Source: a virus (Duplodnaviria > Heunggongvirae > Uroviricota > Caudoviricetes). Taken from it: a DNA stretch of 48,038 bases. The stretch covers positions 1 through 48,038 of IMG/VR virus record IMGVR_UViG_3300011840_000036; one strand, 5' to 3'. Shown here one piece after another: positions 4,800 to 47,474 of the stretch (positions are counted from its first letter, which is position 1; every line of letters starts with the position of its first letter). Both the position numbers and the translations under genes were made by a program. The notes under the pieces are model-generated. The model worked only from the letters and a program-made list of their open reading frames with translations, ran no database searches and was not told where the DNA came from.

Positions 4800-4968
4800 G
4801 ATAGCAGCCTCGTTAGTGAATTTGATTAACTCACCACCAAGGTTTTCCACGACCATAAGGGTGGTGAGACGTACAGGGGTGGAAATACCGGTCACTAACG
4901 AACCCGGCCAGCCTTGCGGCTGCCCTGCACGTCCCACCATAATCTGAATGTGGCTGTGCATTACGCAT

Positions 4969-4992
4969 AAAAAAACCGCCTGAGCGCGGTTA
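4969..4992 (-). terminator. Putative Rho-independent terminator (minus strand)
   Basis: Plus strand reads AAAAAAACCGCctgagcGCGGTT; on the minus strand this is a 6-bp GC-rich stem followed by a 7-T run. Confidence 0.4.
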
Positions 4993-5316
4993 TGCGCGTT
5001 AGTGAACATCGGGTTTCCACGCCCGGCACCCGTTTTATGAGGTGCAGGTGCACTATAATTCCACCCGTTCTGGTTTTCAATAGCTACATTCAACATTTTC
5101 TCTACCTTTCATCACCTAAGTGAACTTTGTGATGCGGTGCCTGGTGCCTCCAGGTGACGTTAACCAGTTAACAATTAACGCCGGATGATTCACCCATAAC
5201 ACTTGTGTTTTTAACTGTTCTGCGTGCGCTGAGCCGCATTCACCGCATCACGAAATTCACTTTTTACTTCATAGACCGTGATATGATTTAGCTTTCCACA
5301 GTAAAAAGGAGTGTTT

Positions 5317-12122: not shown

Positions 12123-12256
12123 CGAAAACGGCTTGCTGTAACGGCAGAGTTAAGTAGAATTGCTGCGGGTGCTTGAGGCTATCTGCCTCGGGCATGAACA
12201 CCAACGGCAGATAGATAAAAGCCCCACCCGACTATAAATCGAAGTGAGGCCCCTAT

Positions 12257-12469
12257 ATGCTCGTCACATATAGATTGCCTCTTACGGACCGAAAGGTCAA
12301 GGAGAAGCAGGCTATGAAGCAGCAAAAGGCGATGTTAATCGCCCTGATCGTCATCTGTTTAACCGTCATAGTGACGGCACTGGTAACGAGGAAAGACCTC
12401 TGCGAGGTACGAATCCGAACCGGCCAGACGGAGGTCGCTGTCTTCACAGCTTACGAACCTGAGGAGTAA
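12257..12469 (+). CDS. mok-like overlapping reading frame (modulator of killing) of a hok/sok-type locus
   Basis: 70-aa ORF starting 57 nt upstream of hok and read in the same frame through hok, as in hok/mok loci. Confidence 0.45.
   Translation: MLVTYRLPLTDRKVKEKQAMKQQKAMLIALIVICLTVIVTALVTRKDLCEVRIRTGQTEVAVFTAYEPEE
12314..12469 (+). CDS. hokD: Hok/Gef family type I toxin (HokD/RelF-like)
   Basis: 51-aa product MKQQKAMLIALIVICLTVIVTALVTRKDLCEVRIRTGQTEVAVFTAYEPEE is a typical Hok peptide (single TM segment, conserved C-terminus); followed by a terminator. Confidence 0.8.
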   Translation: MKQQKAMLIALIVICLTVIVTALVTRKDLCEVRIRTGQTEVAVFTAYEPEE

Positions 12470-17907: not shown

Positions 17908-17983
<76 letters not shown>

Positions 17984-17986
17984 TAT

Positions 17987-18061
<75 letters not shown>

Positions 18062-20946: not shown

Positions 20947-21005
20947 CAGCATTACAGCAGCCCTTCAGTGAGGGGCTGCGATAATGCAGCATGAGAAGGT
21001 GGAAT

Positions 21006-21671
21006 ATGGCTGACCTTAACGACCTTCACAGACAGCTTCTGGGAATGCAGAAGCAGGTGCGTTTTGCCACTGCGCGCGCCATCACTGCCACGGTGAGAAA
21101 AATTGAAGCGGCAGAGAAAGAAAACCTTCGCCGGAAGCTGGATAACCCGACGCCGTTCACCGTGAACTCGGTGCGCTCAAAAGGGGCAACAAGGGACAAT
21201 CTGACCGGTCGGGTGTTCATCATGGATACCGCCGTGCCTTACCTTGAACCCTTTGAGGTGGGCGGGCTGCATTATCTCGGTGAGGGGCAGAAAGCTGTAC
21301 TGAACCCGAAAAATATCCGGCTGAACAAATACGGCAACCTGCCAAAGGCAAAACTGCAACAGCTGAAGGCCAGACCGGATGTGTTCATCGGTAAGGTGAC
21401 GAACAACTATGGTGAGGATGTTGGTGGCGTCTGGCAGCGTAAGAAAGCGAAAAAAGTGGCAAAAACCAGGAAGCGGAGAAAACGCTCCCCCAATGGCACA
21501 CGCGCTCCCCGCAAAAAAAGCCGCTCACCAAAGCTGTTGATACGTTTTGGTGATGCACTGCCGGTCACGCCGGTACTGGGTTATCAGGCGCTGGCACACA
21601 ACATGGCATCGCGTCTCATGAAGACGGAGCTGAGTGTGGCGCTTGAACAGGCTTTAAAGACGGCGAAGTGA
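21006..21671 (+). CDS. Hypothetical protein with highly basic Lys/Arg segment
   Basis: 221-aa ORF containing RKKAKKVAKTRKRRKRSPNGTRAPRKKSRSPK; no family recognised. Confidence 0.5.
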   Translation: MADLNDLHRQLLGMQKQVRFATARAITATVRKIEAAEKENLRRKLDNPTPFTVNSVRSKGATRDNLTGRVFIMDTAVPYLEPFEVGGLHYLGEGQKAVLNPKNIRLNKYGNLPKAKLQQLKARPDVFIGKVTNNYGEDVGGVWQRKKAKKVAKTRKRRKRSPNGTRAPRKKSRSPKLLIRFGDALPVTPVLGYQALAHNMASRLMKTELSVALEQALKTAK

Positions 21672-21719
21672 TGCAGGGCATTGTTGCCCTGAAGAAAGAA
21701 CGTGCCAGCAGCGTTTTTA

Positions 21720-21911
21720 TTAACGTGATTCATGGCGAGAGTAACCACACTCTCTGCAAACATAAATGTCCCGCTGAAGGCCTAATACTCCAAACGTTGG
21801 ATCATTTTCAGTTCTGTCGAGCTGAAAAGACGCTTTTTGGCATTTGGGACAGAATTGTGCGCTGGTTGCAGAACAATGGTTCGATTCCAGTTCAGCAACT
21901 CTTCGCTTCAA
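21720..21911 (-). CDS. Putative zinc-ribbon protein (two CxxC pairs), opposite strand
   Basis: 63-aa ORF with CPKC ... CREC; TTG start with AGGAAA upstream; conflicts with the overlapping plus-strand ORF 21668..22000. Confidence 0.35.
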   Translation of the reverse strand: MKRRVAELESNHCSATSAQFCPKCQKASFQLDRTENDPTFGVLGLQRDIYVCRECGYSRHESR

Positions 21912-21996
21912 ATCTTCTATTTCCTGTGGGACTGACTGAAGTTTTTTTCAGAGTGGTATCTTTTCCAGAAGTGTATTTAATTCGGAGAGTATTCCC

Positions 21997-22200
21997 ATGA
22001 ATAACCTCATAAACAAAACTCACATTAGCGAACGCGGCATAGCGATATGCCGCCCCGTTGTTTCATATCTTGATGTTGAAAGAGATGAATCCGGGGGCAG
22101 GACATTGTATATCCACCGCACAGGAGGTGAAACGCTCGTGTTCCCTCTCAATAAGGAGGCGACCTGCCATCTGGTTGCGTTATTGTCTGATGAAACGTGA
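21997..22200 (+). CDS. Hypothetical protein
   Basis: 67-aa ORF just upstream of the cos-like region. Confidence 0.4.
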   Translation: MNNLINKTHISERGIAICRPVVSYLDVERDESGGRTLYIHRTGGETLVFPLNKEATCHLVALLSDET

Positions 22201-22339
22201 GGAAATATATGAAAACCATCAGTCGTGAAAAAATCATCACAGGGTTTTGTGATGGCATTGTGATTTATCGTTATCTTGAGATTTTTGAAACCGCAAGCGG
22301 GTGTCGACACTGTCGCCTGGCAGGGTAACGGGTCCTTCC

Positions 22340-22431
22340 TGGAGACCTTATTGCACGGGCATTGCGCGAGCGCGGTGTTTCGCTAGCTATAAAATTTTGA
22401 AATTTGGGTAACAGGTAACAGAGGGTAACAG
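22340..22431. other. Candidate cos region (cosN/cosB-like) upstream of the small terminase gene
   Basis: GGGCATTGCGCGAG-CGCGGTGTTTCGCTAGCTATAAAATTTTGAAATTTGG resembles the lambda left-end sequence as recalled (GGGCGGCGACCT-CGCGGGTTTTCGCTATTTATGAAAATTTTCC); lies directly upstream of the Nu1-like gene. Confidence 0.5.
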
Positions 22432-22690
22432 ATGAATCAGGCGGAATTCGCAAAACTTCACGGTGTCAGTCGCAAGACGGTAACGGCGTGGAAGGCCCGT
22501 GGCTGGCTGGTTCTGGACGGTGAGGACATCGATGTTGATGCCTCAAACGAGCGGATCCGGCGTTACCGGAAAACTGTTACCCGAATAAAAAATGAGCAAA
22601 AAGGTAACACTTTAGGTAACAGGGTAACATCCGAAGGTAACACTCCGGGTAACAACGAAGGTAACACTCCGGGTAACAACGAAGGTAACA
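22407..22690. repeat. Cluster of about 12 GGTAACA heptamers (3 upstream of terS, 9 inside it encoding Gly-Asn repeats, plus one inverted copy)
   Basis: Direct copies read at about 22407, 22414, 22424, 22603, 22615, 22623, 22636, 22648, 22660, 22672 and 22684; inverted TGTTACC at about 22576. Confidence 0.7.
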
Positions 22691-23073
22691 GCATTGCCCT
22701 GTACGATGACTCCTCTGATGTATCGAAAGAAGCACGGGTCGAACAGTTCATTGCCAGCCACGGAGCCATGATGACGCTCGATGAAGCCAGAACCATGAAA
22801 GAGAACTACTTCGCGCTGCTGGCAAAACTCGAGTATGACGAAAAGAAAGGAACACTGCTTCCCTGGAAACCCATCATTGAGCGGGTCGGGGCGGAGTATA
22901 CCCGGGTGAGGACGCGCCTTGTTGCCCTTGCGCCGGAACATGGTCCCCGTCTGCGGGCGCTGGCGGGGATGACAGACGATCAGGGATTCACGGCGGCATT
23001 GCAGGAACTGATTTACGAGGCGCTGAATGAACTTGCATTTGACAGGCGCGAAACCCACGGAGATACAGTTTGA
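22432..23073 (+). CDS. Terminase small subunit (lambda Nu1-like, N-terminal HTH)
   Basis: 213-aa ORF; N-terminus MNQAEFAKLHGVSRKTVTAWKARGW resembles the Nu1 DNA-binding domain; overlaps the terL start; internal GNTPGNNE repeats. Confidence 0.85.
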   Translation: MNQAEFAKLHGVSRKTVTAWKARGWLVLDGEDIDVDASNERIRRYRKTVTRIKNEQKGNTLGNRVTSEGNTPGNNEGNTPGNNEGNSIALYDDSSDVSKEARVEQFIASHGAMMTLDEARTMKENYFALLAKLEYDEKKGTLLPWKPIIERVGAEYTRVRTRLVALAPEHGPRLRALAGMTDDQGFTAALQELIYEALNELAFDRRETHGDTV

Positions 23074-25006
23074 GGATGCGCTGCTTTCGTGTCCGCGTTA
23101 TCTTGCGCCTCCGCCTCCATTATCCTTAAGTCAGTGGGCCAACACCTTCGCTGTACTGTCCCGTGAGACCAGTGCCCAGACGGGGAAATTCCGCTCCTAT
23201 CCCTATCAGGACGGCATAATGGATGCCATCACCGACCCGTCAGTCACGTATGTGTCTGTGATGAAATCAGCCCGTGTGGGATACACGAAAATTCTTGATC
23301 ATGTGGTGGGCTATTACCTGGCACATGATCCGTCCCCCATCCTGGTGGTTCAGCCGAGGGTGGAGGATGCCGAAGACTACAGTAAAACCGAAATTGCCCC
23401 GATGCTGCGCGACACGCCGGTGCTGGCAGGCATCAGCGGCGACCCGAAGGCAAAAAACAGCAACCAGACCATTCTTCGCAAAACCTTTTCCAACGGCGCA
23501 AACCTCACGCTGGTCGGGGCCAACTCCCCCGGCGGTTTTCGCCGTATCACATGCCGCATCATCCTTTTTGATGAGGTGGACGGGTATCCGGCAGGGGGCG
23601 CAGGGTCCGAAGGGGATCAGATTGCGCTGGGAACAAAACGTTCCGAAACCTTCTGGAACCGCAAGATTGTTCTCGGCTCAACGCCAACCGTGAAAGGCGT
23701 GAGCCGTATTGAAAAAGCCTGGCTGGAAAGCGATCAGCGCCGCTACTTCGTGCCCTGTCCTCACTGCGGTGAATATCAGGTGCTGGAGTGGGGCAGCAAA
23801 AGCACCCCTTACGGCATCAAGTGGGAAAAGGACAGCGAAGGTAACGGGCTGCCGGAGACCGCTTACTACCTGTGCCGCCACCACGGCTGTGTGATTGTGC
23901 ACAGTGAACTGCCCGGGATGCTGGAAAAAGGCGAATGGCGCGCCGGTGCACCATTCAGGGGGCATGCCGGTTTTCATATCTGGACGGGCTACAGCCCGCA
24001 CTCAAATGCCTCCTGGCCGAATCTGGTCGCCGAATGGCTGAGGGTGAAGGACGATCCGCTGATGCGCCAGACATTCATCAATACCACGCTGGGCGAGCCT
24101 TACGAGGATGCAGGCGAGTTTGCGATGAGTGAGCAGCGGCTGATCGCCCGCGTTGAGGTCTGGGGGGCGGAGGTGCCGTATGGCGTGCTCCTGCTCACCG
24201 CCGGGGTGGATACGCAGGATGACCGCTTCGAAATCACCGTTCTCGGCTGGGGCATGAACGAAGAATGCTGGGTGATTGCGCATGACATGATTTTTGGTGA
24301 CCTTGAAACAGAAGAGCCGTGGGAGCGCCTTGATGCGTATCTGAAGCAGGTCTGGCGGCGGGCTGACGGTTTCGGGCTGACGCTCTCGGCGGTCTGCCAT
24401 GACTCGGGCGGTCATCACACCAACAAAGTGTATGAGTTCTCGAAGGCGCGTATCGGGCGTCGTATCTGGGCGACAAAAGGTGAGTCGGCGACGGGCGGTA
24501 AACGTAACCCTGTCTGGCCGACGCGTGTCGTTTCGTCCCGCAACCGGAAATCCTTCCGCCCCGTCATTCTGGGGGTGAACTCCGCGAAGGACGACATCAG
24601 GCACCGGCTCCATATTGAGCCGGATCCGGCAGGCGCGCCTGCCGCAGGCTGTATCCATTTTCCGTCGTTTCTGGATTTGCATTATTTCAGTCAGCTGCTC
24701 TCTGAGCGTCTGGTGCGTAAGGAGAACGGCGGGCAGGTGTACCGTGTCTGGGAGCTGTCTGCCGGACGGGCGAATGAGGCGCTGGACTGCATGGTGTACG
24801 GTTACGCGGCCCTGAAGGGGCTGCTGCATCACGGTCTGAAACTGAACCGTCTGGCTGAACGGGCGGCGCAGGATCTGTCATTCATGGAGCCGCCTCCCGC
24901 GCAGCCGGAAGAAAAAATCAGTTTAAGTATGCCGGGCGCAAAAGCACCGGAGACACCCCGTAAGAAAATACCGCTGCATATGAGGCTTGCAGGAGTGAGA
25001 CGATGA
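23027..25006 (+). CDS. Terminase large subunit (lambda gpA-like)
   Basis: 659-aa ORF with extensive similarity by eye to lambda gpA (KSARVGYTK..., FDEVDGYP..., CPHCGEYQ..., FINTTLGEPYE). Confidence 0.95.
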   Translation: MNLHLTGAKPTEIQFEDALLSCPRYLAPPPPLSLSQWANTFAVLSRETSAQTGKFRSYPYQDGIMDAITDPSVTYVSVMKSARVGYTKILDHVVGYYLAHDPSPILVVQPRVEDAEDYSKTEIAPMLRDTPVLAGISGDPKAKNSNQTILRKTFSNGANLTLVGANSPGGFRRITCRIILFDEVDGYPAGGAGSEGDQIALGTKRSETFWNRKIVLGSTPTVKGVSRIEKAWLESDQRRYFVPCPHCGEYQVLEWGSKSTPYGIKWEKDSEGNGLPETAYYLCRHHGCVIVHSELPGMLEKGEWRAGAPFRGHAGFHIWTGYSPHSNASWPNLVAEWLRVKDDPLMRQTFINTTLGEPYEDAGEFAMSEQRLIARVEVWGAEVPYGVLLLTAGVDTQDDRFEITVLGWGMNEECWVIAHDMIFGDLETEEPWERLDAYLKQVWRRADGFGLTLSAVCHDSGGHHTNKVYEFSKARIGRRIWATKGESATGGKRNPVWPTRVVSSRNRKSFRPVILGVNSAKDDIRHRLHIEPDPAGAPAAGCIHFPSFLDLHYFSQLLSERLVRKENGGQVYRVWELSAGRANEALDCMVYGYAALKGLLHHGLKLNRLAERAAQDLSFMEPPPAQPEEKISLSMPGAKAPETPRKKIPLHMRLAGVRR

Positions 25007-47289: not shown

Positions 47290-47474
47290 AATGACGTCCT
47301 CTAGTGGTTTCTAAACTTAAACTATCACCACCGTCAGGTTCCAATCATCGGGTGGTGAGACGCACAGGGTTGGAACTACCGGGAAACCGACCGACGAGCT
47401 TTTCAGCTCCCCCATGCGCCCCACAATAATTCATATGTGCGCGTGCATACGAGAAAAAACACTTGTTATATCTG

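Follow-up and report, generated by a model that had tools for sequence, protein, structure and literature searches.

Predicted cosB-like arrays of the heptamer GGTAACA in front of and within a phage small terminase gene

Results

Terminase genes and their relatives

The window analysed here, a stretch of viral DNA of 48,038 bases, carries a small terminase gene, terS, a large terminase gene, terL, and, in front of and within terS, a cos-like region with arrays of the heptamer GGTAACA (Table 1). The predicted TerS is matched by phrog_57 over residues 1-208 (E 1.6e-27), the family that is also matched by lambda Nu1 (1.3e-76). A direct comparison of TerS with Nu1 by hhalign is weak and covers the helix-turn-helix (HTH) only, with residues 2-31 aligned to residues 4-33 of Nu1 (E 1.7e-4, probability 50%). 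In the Pfam search TerS matched no TerS family, HTH_28 appearing below threshold only, and PDB sequences searched with a profile yielded nothing beyond chance matches to cellobiohydrolases. The AlphaFold2 model shows an N-terminal domain of helices 3-10, 14-22 and 35-49 with a hairpin at 28-33 (pLDDT about 80-84), a stretch from residue 50 to 95 with pLDDT <50, and helices within residues 99-208; the pTM of the full model is 0.24. The best Foldseek matches to the model were Xis, BldC, RacA and MerR-type domains, all of them weak (E 0.3 or higher). TerL matches the Pfam families GpA_ATPase (3.5e-76) and GpA_nuclease (7.4e-81). The locus has the N-terminal winged HTH (wHTH), the helical C-terminal part and the overlapping GpA-type terL that mark a Nu1-type TerS paired with a gpA-type TerL. 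The small ORFs upstream (21997-22200 and 22197-22328) gave no family match.

Megablast of 22200-23100 against 50,697 phage records returned no match. Relatives were found by tblastn (6 records), in E. coli chromosomes (9 genomes) and in large collections of proteins and contigs, and the related set used below consists of 141 unique terS loci or ORFs. The N-domain is 61% identical in distant relatives vs 31% for the C-domain, and the sequence VSRKTVTxWK is invariant or nearly so in them, among the matches listed, with I replacing V in a few. Our literature searches found no description of a GGTAACA array at cos or inside terS.

Table 1. Features of the cos-terS-terL region (positions in the window).
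Feature	Position	Strand	Remarks
cosQ-like GGGTCCT, within the conserved box GGGTCCYTYY	22330..22336	+	identical to lambda 48473-48479
Predicted 12-nt 5' cohesive end (cosN), GCATTGCGCGAG	22359..22370	+	homologue of the BZS1 end GCATTGCGCGCC
I2-like spacer between cosN and cosB, GCGCGGTGTTTCGCTAGCTATAAAATTTTGAAATTT	22371..22406	+	aligns with lambda bp 13-48; conserved across the family
Predicted proximal cosB cluster, 3 direct GGTAACA	22407..22430	+	22407-13, 22414-20, 22424-30; predicted mature-chromosome bp 49-72
terS, Nu1-type small terminase, 213 aa (phrog_57)	22432..23073	+	
Coding sequence of the N-terminal wHTH, residues 1-49	22432..22578	+	presumed heptamer reader
Inverted heptamer, TGTTACC on the + strand	22575..22581	-	codes (T)VT
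Predicted distal cosB array in terS, 8 direct GGTAACA	22603..22690	+	codes GN-x repeats of the disordered linker; copies start at 22603, 22615, 22623, 22636, 22648, 22660, 22672, 22684
terL, lambda gpA-type large terminase	23027..25006	+	overlaps the end of terS by 47 nt

A lambda-type cos region

The sequence-only reading had placed a cos-like sequence next to the array, and this is borne out by the cosQ-like heptamer and the cohesive-end homologue listed in Table 1. GGGTCCT lies 30 nt from the right end of lambda and 29 nt before the predicted end in the window, and the box that contains it is present in 117 of the 141 related loci, 26-29 bp (mostly 29) before the cosN-like sequence. The predicted end agrees at 10 of 12 positions with the cohesive end of Serratia phage BZS1, which was determined experimentally by PhageTerm, PCR and sequencing (PMC7556043); its position is uncertain by 1 nt, as alignment with lambda would move the start by 1 nt. 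From cosQ through cosN to I2 the window and lambda share 54 identities over about 78 positions, and the alignment has a score of 19, compared with a mean of -12 and a maximum of 5 for shuffled sequences. In 106 of 107 loci the distance from the start of the cosN-like motif GGGCATTGCGC to the first heptamer is 48-50 bp, in most of them 49.

Judged from its sequence, the region is a lambda-type cos in a cohesive-end prophage of E. coli, composed of cosQ, cosN, an I2-like spacer and a candidate cosB of short words, the ends being those predicted here. The three 16-bp R sequences of a lambda-type cosB, with the IHF site I1 between R3 and R2, were not found in the window; the wHTH coding sequence of terS occupies the place where I1 would be. 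An Rfam search of the region identified no RNA family. A headful pac site inside terS was considered and rejected on account of the GpA (cos) type of TerL and of the cohesive ends defined for the relative BZS1.

The heptamer array

Exact copies of GGTAACA number 17 in the window, both strands counted, while in 100 dinucleotide-preserving shuffles of the window the count averaged 4.5 (sd 2.4) and never exceeded 11. Twelve of these copies fall within the 284 bp from 22407 to 22690. The earlier count of at least twelve copies within about 370 bp, three of them directly upstream of the start codon, thus holds, and so does the enrichment over expectation. The array does not, however, begin at 22323 as had been proposed: only the hexamer in GGTAACG is found there, at 22324, and the first exact heptamer is at 22407. 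The GGTAACG hexamer is on the other side of cosN, is not kept in relatives and is probably incidental.

The proximal copies end directly 5' of the terS ATG, and in most related loci they stand at -27/-20/-8 (or -26/-19/-8). The copies at 22407 and 22414, which are 7 bp apart, may be too close for simultaneous occupation by two wHTH domains. Within the gene, the inverted copy lies 161-174 bp 3' of the three proximal ones. The eight direct copies beyond it are spaced by 12, 8, 13, 12, 12, 12 and 12 bp, and Tandem Repeats Finder describes 22622-22690 as 2.8 copies of a 24-bp unit with 95% match. The nine intragenic copies had all been said to encode Gly-Asn; the number is correct, but only seven do so. 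Val-Thr is encoded by the other two, namely the copy at 22623, which is read in frame +2 (within GNRVT), and the inverted copy (Table 1). Hexamers at 22479 and 22562 are not exact heptamers. The inverted one (22562-22567) is confined to the E. coli group; the one at 22479, in the recognition-helix codons, was rejected as an additional site because the codons there differ among relatives.

Throughout the 141 loci the density of GGTAACA is 14.3/kb between -200 and +350 of the terS start vs 0.065/kb outside. The consensus element is R-GGTAACA-V, and the flank rule (R before, no T after) is common to upstream and intragenic copies. GGTAACA is conserved in prophages of gamma-, beta- and alpha-proteobacteria, even where TerS identity is down to 30-40% and where GC reaches 70%.

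Selection acts on the DNA word

Repeats of the form GN-x are present in nearly all close TerS homologues, and in the model of TerS they lie in the low-confidence, disordered linker. Selection could accordingly have favored the Gly-Asn repeats as a flexible, Asn-rich protein linker, the DNA repeats being a by-product and the upstream copies unrelated. The codons speak against this explanation, as they are nearly fixed. At linker GN pairs Gly is encoded by GGT in 538 of 552 cases (97%) vs 356 of 1360 (26%) elsewhere in terS, and Asn by AAC in 549 of 552 (99%) vs 632 of 958 (66%); the codon that follows begins with A in 531 of 552, Arg in this position being AGR in 89/90 cases (185/1963 elsewhere in terS) and Ser being AGY in 43/43 (514/1565 elsewhere), although all these counts overstate the number of independent events because related sequences are not independent.

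The word is also used in more than one frame and orientation. The 141 ORFs contain 528 forward copies in frame 0, 25 in frame 2 and 158 reverse copies, and those in the other frame and in the opposite orientation code Val-Thr. Family members throughout have an inverted copy at +143 or +155, with the codons NNT GTT ACC in 93 of 104 cases among the matches listed. An internal control is provided by the TVT of the recognition helix: its codons vary, whereas those of the second TVT are nearly always NNT GTT ACC. In high-GC relatives the linkers are rich in VT and not in GN, yet they are built from the same GGTAACA word.

A natural control is found in a sub-family of the L059 type, which has the same HTH in a TerS of 185 aa but no GN linker. 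All eight of its heptamers are kept in the non-coding leader. A direct pair comes first, about 150 bp upstream of the ATG, followed by some 75 bp of AT-rich spacer, a pair of inverted copies and three or four direct ones. Only this sub-family has such a non-coding spacer ahead of inverted copies.

Codons, frames and orientations together show that selection acts on the DNA word and not on the peptide. The codon data largely refute selection for a protein linker as the source of the repeats, and with the L059-type leader taken into account we consider that explanation highly improbable. A neutral low-complexity or microsatellite repeat was also rejected, as synonymous positions are almost fixed while spacers vary, and in view of the TVT codon control.

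The word changes with the HTH class of TerS

The profile of the TerS class of the window (class A) retrieved 160 loci in which no covariation was found; none could be visible there because the word is identical in all 160. Covariation emerged through matches confined to the C-terminal part of TerS, namely phiAP1 and Bordetella phages. A search for related loci with the phiAP1 TerS yielded only copies 97-99% identical, and the other classes were collected by a homologous-protein search together with the contigs encoding the proteins. Five HTH classes each have a heptamer: GGTAACA in class A, GGTTGCA in B, GTTCGCA in C, GTCCGCA in D and ACTGACG in F. Each class has its own word at both the proximal and the distal place, with matching peptide repeats in the linker. 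In each of the 18 loci that represent the five classes the dominant motif is the word of its own class, and the table of counts is almost purely diagonal, with seven stray off-diagonal counts in five of the 18 loci; class C is supported by no more than 2-3 copies per locus. While the word follows the HTH class of TerS, cosQ, cosN, I2 and TerL stay constant. Bordetella phage PY223 has three copies of what may be a third kind of word, GCGCGACGA, too few to call.

The strongest support for reading the heptamers as TerS sites comes from these relatives, in which different heptamers accompany different N-terminal HTHs. It bears on whether some other factor reads the word, be it a nucleoid protein of the host, a regulator of late genes or a protein encoded by one of the small ORFs nearby. 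A reverse search, from word to protein, provides an argument for such a factor: 26 of 95 sites with three heptamers have no TerS of this kind downstream. They comprise microsatellite-like runs, arrays beside integrase genes and arrays near other packaging modules, and no TerS N-domain was found encoded with them even at E of 10 or less. The word is therefore not unique to TerS, and we treated these 26 sites as unrelated uses of GGTAACA rather than as relatives. Against another factor stands the switch of the word with the HTH class while the rest of the packaging apparatus named above stays constant. In addition, hosts of class A span alpha-, beta- and gamma-proteobacteria with a single word, which argues against a host factor; the upstream small ORFs have no family match; and the proximal heptamers lie in the position of lambda R3, a TerS site (PMC4669245). 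Reading by another factor is in our opinion quite improbable.

A different question is whether the intragenic copies matter. Only the proximal cluster might be a functional cosB, the array in the gene being a tolerated relic that was spread by slippage or by recombination with the proximal sites and plays no role in packaging. Copy number is indeed very variable, with 0-10 forward copies per terS ORF among relatives and different numbers among the E. coli relatives, whose TerS proteins range from 201 to 251 aa; the window itself has one 24-bp unit more than its closest relatives. Moreover, the rR2 site of phage N15 is reported not to be critical for growth (PMC4669245), so the distal array may likewise be dispensable. 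On the other hand, a neutral relic would decay at synonymous positions, whereas the word has remained exact across 30-100% protein identity while the spacers between copies diverged. Each of the five specificity classes has a distal cluster made of its own word, and where distal sites are absent from the gene they are kept in the non-coding leader. That the intragenic array is such a relic seems quite unlikely.

The location of some copies suggests yet another role. The third heptamer lies between a Shine-Dalgarno-like GAGG and the ATG of terS, the proximal word of class D overlaps the start codon, and the array is within a transcribed gene, so that TerS bound to these heptamers could, mainly or additionally, throttle transcription or translation of terS and terL. 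No promoter-like site was seen on the + strand in 21600-23100, however, and the conserved distance is that to cosN, not to the start codon, also in the L059 type. We regard autoregulation as unlikely; it and a role in packaging are compatible and not exclusive of each other.

Discussion

The heptamers in front of and within terS are probably cosB-like TerS sites that also dictate the sequence of the linker. The sequence-only reading had suggested as much, and the proposal gains support from the position of the array, the codon usage, the L059-type sub-family and the covariation with HTH class. We infer that TerS binds the heptamers, that binding involves cooperativity or wrapping, and that the distal array contributes to packaging. 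In the mechanism that we propose, the N-terminal wHTH, with VSRKTVTxWK as its recognition helix, would bind the heptamer words. The three proximal heptamers (bp 49-72 from the left end) would act as lambda R3 does and would place the gpA-type TerL on cosN, about 40-50 bp upstream, where it would make nicks staggered by 12 nt. The inverted copy and the eight distal ones, 150-260 bp further on in terS, may serve as extra cooperative docking sites for an oligomeric TerS and would correspond to R2 and R1 of lambda and to the intragenic rR2 of N15. Since the distal array coincides with the codons of the disordered linker that joins the HTH to the helical C-terminal domain, the DNA word would fix the linker peptide, as Gly-Asn-(K/T/R/S/N) in frame 0 and as Val-Thr when read in the other frame or orientation. 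The repeats presumably expand and contract by unequal recombination or slippage.

The array illustrates with unusual clarity how a signal in the DNA overrides the freedom of a coding sequence. Since each of the HTH classes, of which there are at least five, comes with a word of its own, the family offers natural specificity swaps that could be used to study DNA recognition by small terminases, a matter not settled even for SPP1 and SF6. Sequence could serve to predict packaging specificity, and with it which satellites or helper phages can cross-package, and hundreds of public proteins annotated as 'RNA polymerase sigma-70' could be renamed small terminases.

It is possible, though doubtful, that the same holds throughout the Nu1-like TerS superfamily in prophages of proteobacteria. 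The part of terS that encodes the linker would then be a second half of cosB, in which each specificity class writes its own 7-bp word (in class A typically with 12-bp spacing), and the linker peptide (GN, VT, VQP, xAN, ADN/VSAP or TDE) would be the translation of that word. If this were true, packaging specificity would be readable from sequence across the superfamily, with a natural recognition code from wHTH to heptamer; the arrays would be a track for an oligomeric TerS that wraps or polymerises, and TerS on its own coding DNA could couple the initiation of packaging to the shut-off of terS and terL.

Comparison with known packaging sites

The pac regions of SPP1 and SF6 have direct repeats around and in the 5' part of the small-terminase gene. 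According to one proposal, a ring of HTH motifs docks on these repeats, each subunit taking up roughly one helical turn (PMC4737164). The isolated DNA-binding domain of SF6 shows little specificity for the repeats that were expected to be TerS sites (PMC4737164), and repeats alone are thus no proof of specific binding. The window resembles them in having direct repeats where the small-terminase gene begins; in the pac region these are boxes A, B and C, which span promoters and gene start. SPP1 and SF6 are, however, headful phages with a different TerL, and their repeats are poorly conserved between the two, whereas the word described here stays exact between very distant relatives and varies together with the HTH class.

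Phage P1, which also packages by headful, has at pac clusters of the hexamer TGATCA/G that flank a cleavage site inside pacA; the hexamers are Dam methylation sites that regulate cleavage. Both systems have a short word in two clusters inside the small-terminase gene, but P1 is cleaved between the clusters while cosN of the window is outside, upstream of all of them. Xis and BldC are small MerR-like proteins with monomeric wHTH domains that polymerise head to tail on arrays of short direct repeats. Among known folds, those of Pukovnik Xis (4j2n) and of BldC in complex with DNA (6ama and 6amk) match TerS residues 1-49 best, albeit weakly (E 0.3 or higher), but these proteins act in recombination or transcription and have no C-terminal terminase-binding domain.

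Phage N15 has a simple cosB made of a single R3 and an accessory inverted rR2 about 200 bp distal, inside the TerS gene (PMC4669245). The comparison with N15 relies on that work, as rR2 did not show up when we scanned bp 1-450 of N15 for repeats. The window shares with N15 a proximal site after I2 and an inverted intragenic copy, here at 22575-22581 and found family-wide. It differs in copy number (3 + 1 + 8 vs one each), in having a peptide repeat, and in the word itself, to which the N15 R3 sequence is unrelated.

Lambda cos and the window have in common GGGTCCT about 30 bp before the nick, a homologous I2, a 12-nt 5' end (in the relative BZS1), a GpA-type TerL and a TerS in the PHROG of Nu1. 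The first elements of the window begin about bp 49, where R3 of lambda lies; the critical positions of R3 are bp 56-59 (PMC4669245). The L059-type sub-family repeats the R3-I1-R2-R1 logic, with direct copies, an AT-rich spacer, inverted copies and direct copies. In contrast to lambda, with its three 16-bp R sequences, the element of the family is a word of 7-8 bp in arrays of 2-10. The cohesive-end sequence of the window is different and no I1 is evident in it. Finally, the start of terS in the window falls between the proximal and the distal cluster, so that most sites are in the gene and would dictate the linker. A cosB that consists of 7-bp words in arrays, located for the most part within the gene of their presumed reader, is a new way of building the recognition half of cos.

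The small terminase gene and its prophage

The ORF preceding the large terminase gene matches phrog_57 over its whole length (E 1.6e-27), lambda Nu1 falls in that PHROG too (E 1.3e-76), and in a profile comparison its residues 2-31 pair with Nu1 4-33 (E 1.7e-4, 50% probability). On this homology we assign it as the small terminase gene, terS. In an AlphaFold2 model, the product TerS consists of a winged helix-turn-helix (wHTH; residues 1-49, pLDDT about 80-84), a disordered segment (residues 50-95, pLDDT below 50) that coincides exactly with the Gly-Asn (GN) repeat region, and a helical C-terminal part (residues 99-208). The folds closest to the N-domain, at weak E-values, are small MerR-like winged helices (Pukovnik Xis, BldC, RacA). 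In NCBI and UniRef, most homologues (P0001-P0120) carry the name 'RNA polymerase subunit sigma-70' or 'hypothetical protein'; the sigma-70 naming looks like a propagated mis-annotation of Nu1-type TerS.

The element, a prophage of E. coli, combines lambdoid regulation with lambda-like head genes and a contractile tail; close copies occur in 9 of 5,426 complete E. coli genomes. A megablast search of 22200-23100 against 50,697 phage records found no isolated phage with DNA-level similarity; by protein, the nearest are Citrobacter phiNP and Serratia BZS1 (TerS identity 53-57%). Directly upstream of cos and distant from the tail genes lies a gene whose 226-aa product matches phrog_1924, 'minor tail protein' (E 4.3e-51). 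The same conserved position was remarked on for BZS1 p72 by its authors (PMC7556043), and genes of ~166-256 aa precede terS in most loci of the other TerS classes as well. RNAs identified elsewhere in the prophage by Rfam and ARAGORN are sok (the hok/sok antitoxin RNA), two C4 antisense RNAs and isrK; genes for tRNA-Thr(TGT) and tRNA-Gly(TCC) lie next to each other.

The heptamer array

The window contains 17 copies of the word GGTAACA, whereas dinucleotide-preserving shuffles yield 4.5 ± 2.4 and none of 100 reached 17, confirming the enrichment. Twelve of the 17 copies lie inside 22407-22690. The sequence-only reading had claimed at least twelve copies, three upstream and nine in the gene, and the exact counts agree: three direct copies upstream, and one inverted plus eight direct within terS. 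Its claim that all nine intragenic copies encode Gly-Asn stands for seven; the copy at 22623 is in another frame and encodes Val-Thr within GNRVT, while the inverted copy reads (T)VT. Tandem Repeats Finder resolves part of the distal array, 22622-22690, into 2.8 copies of a 24-bp unit with 95% match. The hexamers at 22324 and 22479 are unconserved among relatives and look incidental.

Compared with its closest relatives (E. coli relatives H1-H4 and loci L084-L086), the window bears an additional 24-bp unit, GGTAACACTCCGGGTAACAACGAA, coding GNTPGNNE, which makes TerS 213 aa long instead of 205 aa. Other E. coli variants carry duplicated blocks of 33 or 51 bp, the latter taking in the inverted copy, and reach up to 251 aa.

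Features of the terminase region and other prophage features in the window
Feature	Position	Strand	Remarks
Gene matching phrog_1924	20991-21671	+	226 aa
Hexamers	22324, 22479, 22562		no exact heptamer match
Stretch aligned with lambda junction	22330-22406
Counterpart of BZS1 cohesive end	22359-22370		GCATTGCGCGAG
Proximal heptamers, direct	22407, 22414, 22424	+	third ends 1 nt ahead of terS ATG
Small terminase gene, terS	22432-23073	+	213 aa
Inverted heptamer	22575-22581	-	exact copy
Distal heptamers, 8 direct	22603-22690	+	spacings 12, 8, 13, 12, 12, 12, 12 bp
24-bp repeats, including one extra unit	22622-22690		GGTAACACTCCGGGTAACAACGAA
gpA-type large terminase gene	23027-25006	+	GpA_ATPase + GpA_nuclease domains
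RNA genes	12167-12316, 4857-4944, 47348-47431, 4969-5045, 17908-18061

A predicted lambda-type cos

In the BZS1 record the first 12 nt, GCATTGCGCGCC, are annotated as the left cohesive end, and terS begins at base 75. This end was established by PhageTerm and then by PCR and sequencing of the prophage junction and virion ends; the paper does not mention the repeats, and its authors did not find a viral homologue of TerS (PMC7556043). The window holds a counterpart, and the stretch around it, aligned with the lambda junction from cosQ through bp 48, has 54 identical positions and scores 19, versus -12 ± 4.7 (maximum 5) in 1,000 shuffles, bearing out the cos-like sequence first suspected. Both the I2 spacer and lambda's cosQ word, GGGTCCT, fall within the aligned stretch. 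The layout hardly varies over 141 unique related loci, with a GGGTCCYTYY box 26-29 bp (mostly 29) ahead of the cosN motif and the first heptamer 48-50 bp (mostly 49) past the motif start. With numbering from the predicted left end, the proximal heptamers cover bp 49-72, the place of lambda R3, whose critical base pairs are 56-59 (PMC4669245). We infer from these alignments that the region is a lambda-type cos.

Constraint on the word as DNA

We fetched 160 loci encoding TerS relatives and counted codons in 141 unique ORFs. GGTAACA is the commonest 7-mer around the terS start in nearly all 160 loci, among them loci of Burkholderia, Pseudomonas, Pandoraea, Cupriavidus, Kaistia and Rhodothalassium, whose TerS identity is 30-40% and whose GC reaches 70%. 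Its usual positions relative to the terS start are -27, -20, -8 and +171 to +246, and its density is 14.3 per kb in -200..+350 versus 0.065 per kb in the remainder of the loci.

At linker GN, Gly is GGT in 538 of 552 cases (356/1360 elsewhere in terS), Asn is AAC in 549 of 552 (632/958), and the next codon begins with A in 531 of 552, Arg there being AGR in 89/90 (185/1963 elsewhere) and Ser AGY in 43/43 (514/1565), although relatives share descent and codon and copy counts are non-independent events. Forward heptamers in these ORFs number 528 in frame 0 and 25 in frame 2, and inverted ones 158; high-GC relatives use this word too, in the other frame or orientation, to write linkers rich in Val-Thr. 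One flank rule, a purine before and no T after, applies to upstream and intragenic copies alike. The TVT of the recognition helix serves as an internal control: its codons vary, and just 38 of 138 contain GGTAAC. At residues 48-50 the second TVT is written, almost without exception, as NNT GTT ACC, the inverted word. Spacers between copies are unconserved, copies per ORF range from 0 to 10, and neighbouring copies most often stand 12 bp (290 cases) or 15 bp (83 cases) apart; such variation in spacers and copy number accounts for the range of 201-251 aa among E. coli TerS variants. The near-fixed codons, with the word in two frames and both orientations, uphold the idea of an imposed repetitive linker and argue that GGTAACA is selected as DNA.

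Eight relatives (L024, L052, L053, L056, L057, L059, L069 and L071) with the same N-terminal HTH as the window TerS (N-domain identity 67-79% in the five scored) form a sub-family that carries all eight of its heptamers in a longer non-coding leader, seen at L059 1300-1500. First come two direct copies, as far from cosN as usual. Some 75 bp of AT-rich sequence separate them from two inverted copies, after which three or four direct ones follow; L024 is exceptional in also keeping four intragenic copies. The linker of the L059 TerS (185 aa, encoded ahead of a gpA-type TerL) is rich in Lys and contains no GN, so the protein does not need the GN peptide. In L071 the TerS ORF seems truncated, and a capsid-like gene comes next. 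The leader amounts to a heptamer version of lambda R3, I1, inverted R2 and R1 (PMC4669245). The window has the same order of direct cluster, inverted copy and direct array, with wHTH coding sequence filling the gap because the terS start codon follows the first cluster.

Covariation of the word with the TerS HTH

In Acetobacter phage phiAP1 only the C-terminal half of TerS matched. This phage keeps cosQ (GGGTCCTTCC), a cosN-like GGGGATTGCGCC and an I2-like spacer, but its HTH differs (ISRPAIKKNI) and GGTTGCA replaces GGTAACA before the start codon. Its linker contains GGTTGCA once and TGCAACC three times, read in different frames (VQP, LQP, DAT, KVA). Homologues of phiAP1 TerS, for ten of which DNA was fetched, sort by recognition helix, each class with its own linker peptide repeat.

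TerS classes, their words and linker repeats (window, class A)
Class	HTH	Word	Linker
A	VSRKTVTxWK	GGTAACA	GN, VT
B	SRPAIKK / SRAAIQK	GGTTGCA	VQP, LQP
C	REFxRRExCSDTLVRK	GTTCGCA	xAN (word in few copies per locus)
D	REFARxxGCDxKQVRR	GTCCGCA	ADN, ADK, VSAP
F	GVxKQSVAQWKSRGLL	ACTGACG	TDE, TDD

When the five words were counted in 18 loci, the dominant word was that of the locus's own class in every one. Class words lie in two places relative to the start codon, one proximal (-33 to +17) and one distal (+141 to +257), and are almost absent from the remainder of each locus; cosQ, the cosN-like sequence, the spacer and a GpA-type TerL are kept throughout. Strays amount to seven counts in five loci, the largest being three class C words in the class A locus L040. 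In this locus (Cupriavidus pauculus), -80..+330 around terS holds 7 GGTAACA and 3 GTTCGCA; the latter may have arisen by chance or be left over from a specificity hybrid. Identity in distant class A relatives is 61% for the N-domain and 31% for the C-domain, with VSRKTVTxWK invariant or nearly so.

Such covariation would be expected of a word read by the N-terminal wHTH. Reading by a host factor and repeats arising from peptide-level selection are both hard to reconcile with a word that follows the TerS HTH class, each class having its own across the 18 loci.

In class D loci L288-L290 the proximal word, at +2 of terS, overlaps the start codon (aTGTCCGCA), so that the DNA site also sets the protein's first residues, Met-Ser-Ala. 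L275 (Bordetella phage PY223) has another TerS N-domain, a more lambda-like cohesive-end sequence (GGGTGACGGCGACC), and, within -150..+120 around terS, two copies of GCGCGACGA upstream of the gene and one inside it, three in all and not enough to define a sixth class.

The word outside this system

A reverse search of IMG/VR for GGTAACAGGTAACA-N(1-8)-GGTAACA gave 95 sites. The window-type TerS N-domain follows 69 and was detectable at none of the other 26, which comprise microsatellite-like runs as well as arrays located beside integrase genes or near other packaging modules; the word is therefore not exclusive to the terS/cos system. Contigs L179 (at 2456), L257 and L210, which are without a TerS of the window family, have GGTAACA triplets or quadruplets with an inverted TGTTACC pair or triplet ~90 bp on, directly upstream of integrase-like genes (N-terminus MKNPNGYGSVVKLSGNRRKPF...); these may be arm-type or Xis sites using the same word. 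In L172, L209/L227, L243 and L228, GGTAACA and TGTTACC clusters precede packaging modules in which the candidate small terminase bears no relation to the window TerS family; this may be chance or reflect a broader use of the word.

Proposed mechanism and comparison with known systems

We propose that TerS wHTH domains bind RGGTAACA. The proximal cluster would anchor TerS beside cosN in the manner of lambda R3, and anchored TerS would recruit TerL to nick sites lying some 40-50 bp upstream. The inverted copy and distal array, proposed counterparts of lambda R2 and R1 and of the accessory intragenic rR2 of N15 (PMC4669245), would offer extra cooperative sites for a TerS oligomer and could stabilise the complex that stays on the left end until prohead docking. 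Copy number would vary by unequal recombination among copies, and the linker would tolerate the imposed peptide because it is presumably disordered. The 12-bp spacing, about one helical turn, would suit either of two arrangements, the wrapped ring that has been proposed for SF6 (PMC4737164) or a head-to-tail filament like those of Xis and BldC. In SPP1 and SF6, similar repeats proved not to be specific sites for the isolated DNA-binding domain (PMC4737164).

We found no description in the searchable literature of a cosB built from arrays of a 7-bp word, of the placement of most such words inside terS, of the class-specific linker peptide repeats that result, or of covariation between word and HTH class. 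With its clean dual-coding signature and natural specificity swaps, the system opens TerS-DNA recognition to direct testing. A lambda-type cos whose cosB is read by a Nu1-type TerS is of an already known kind, and N15 provides the precedent for an intragenic accessory site.
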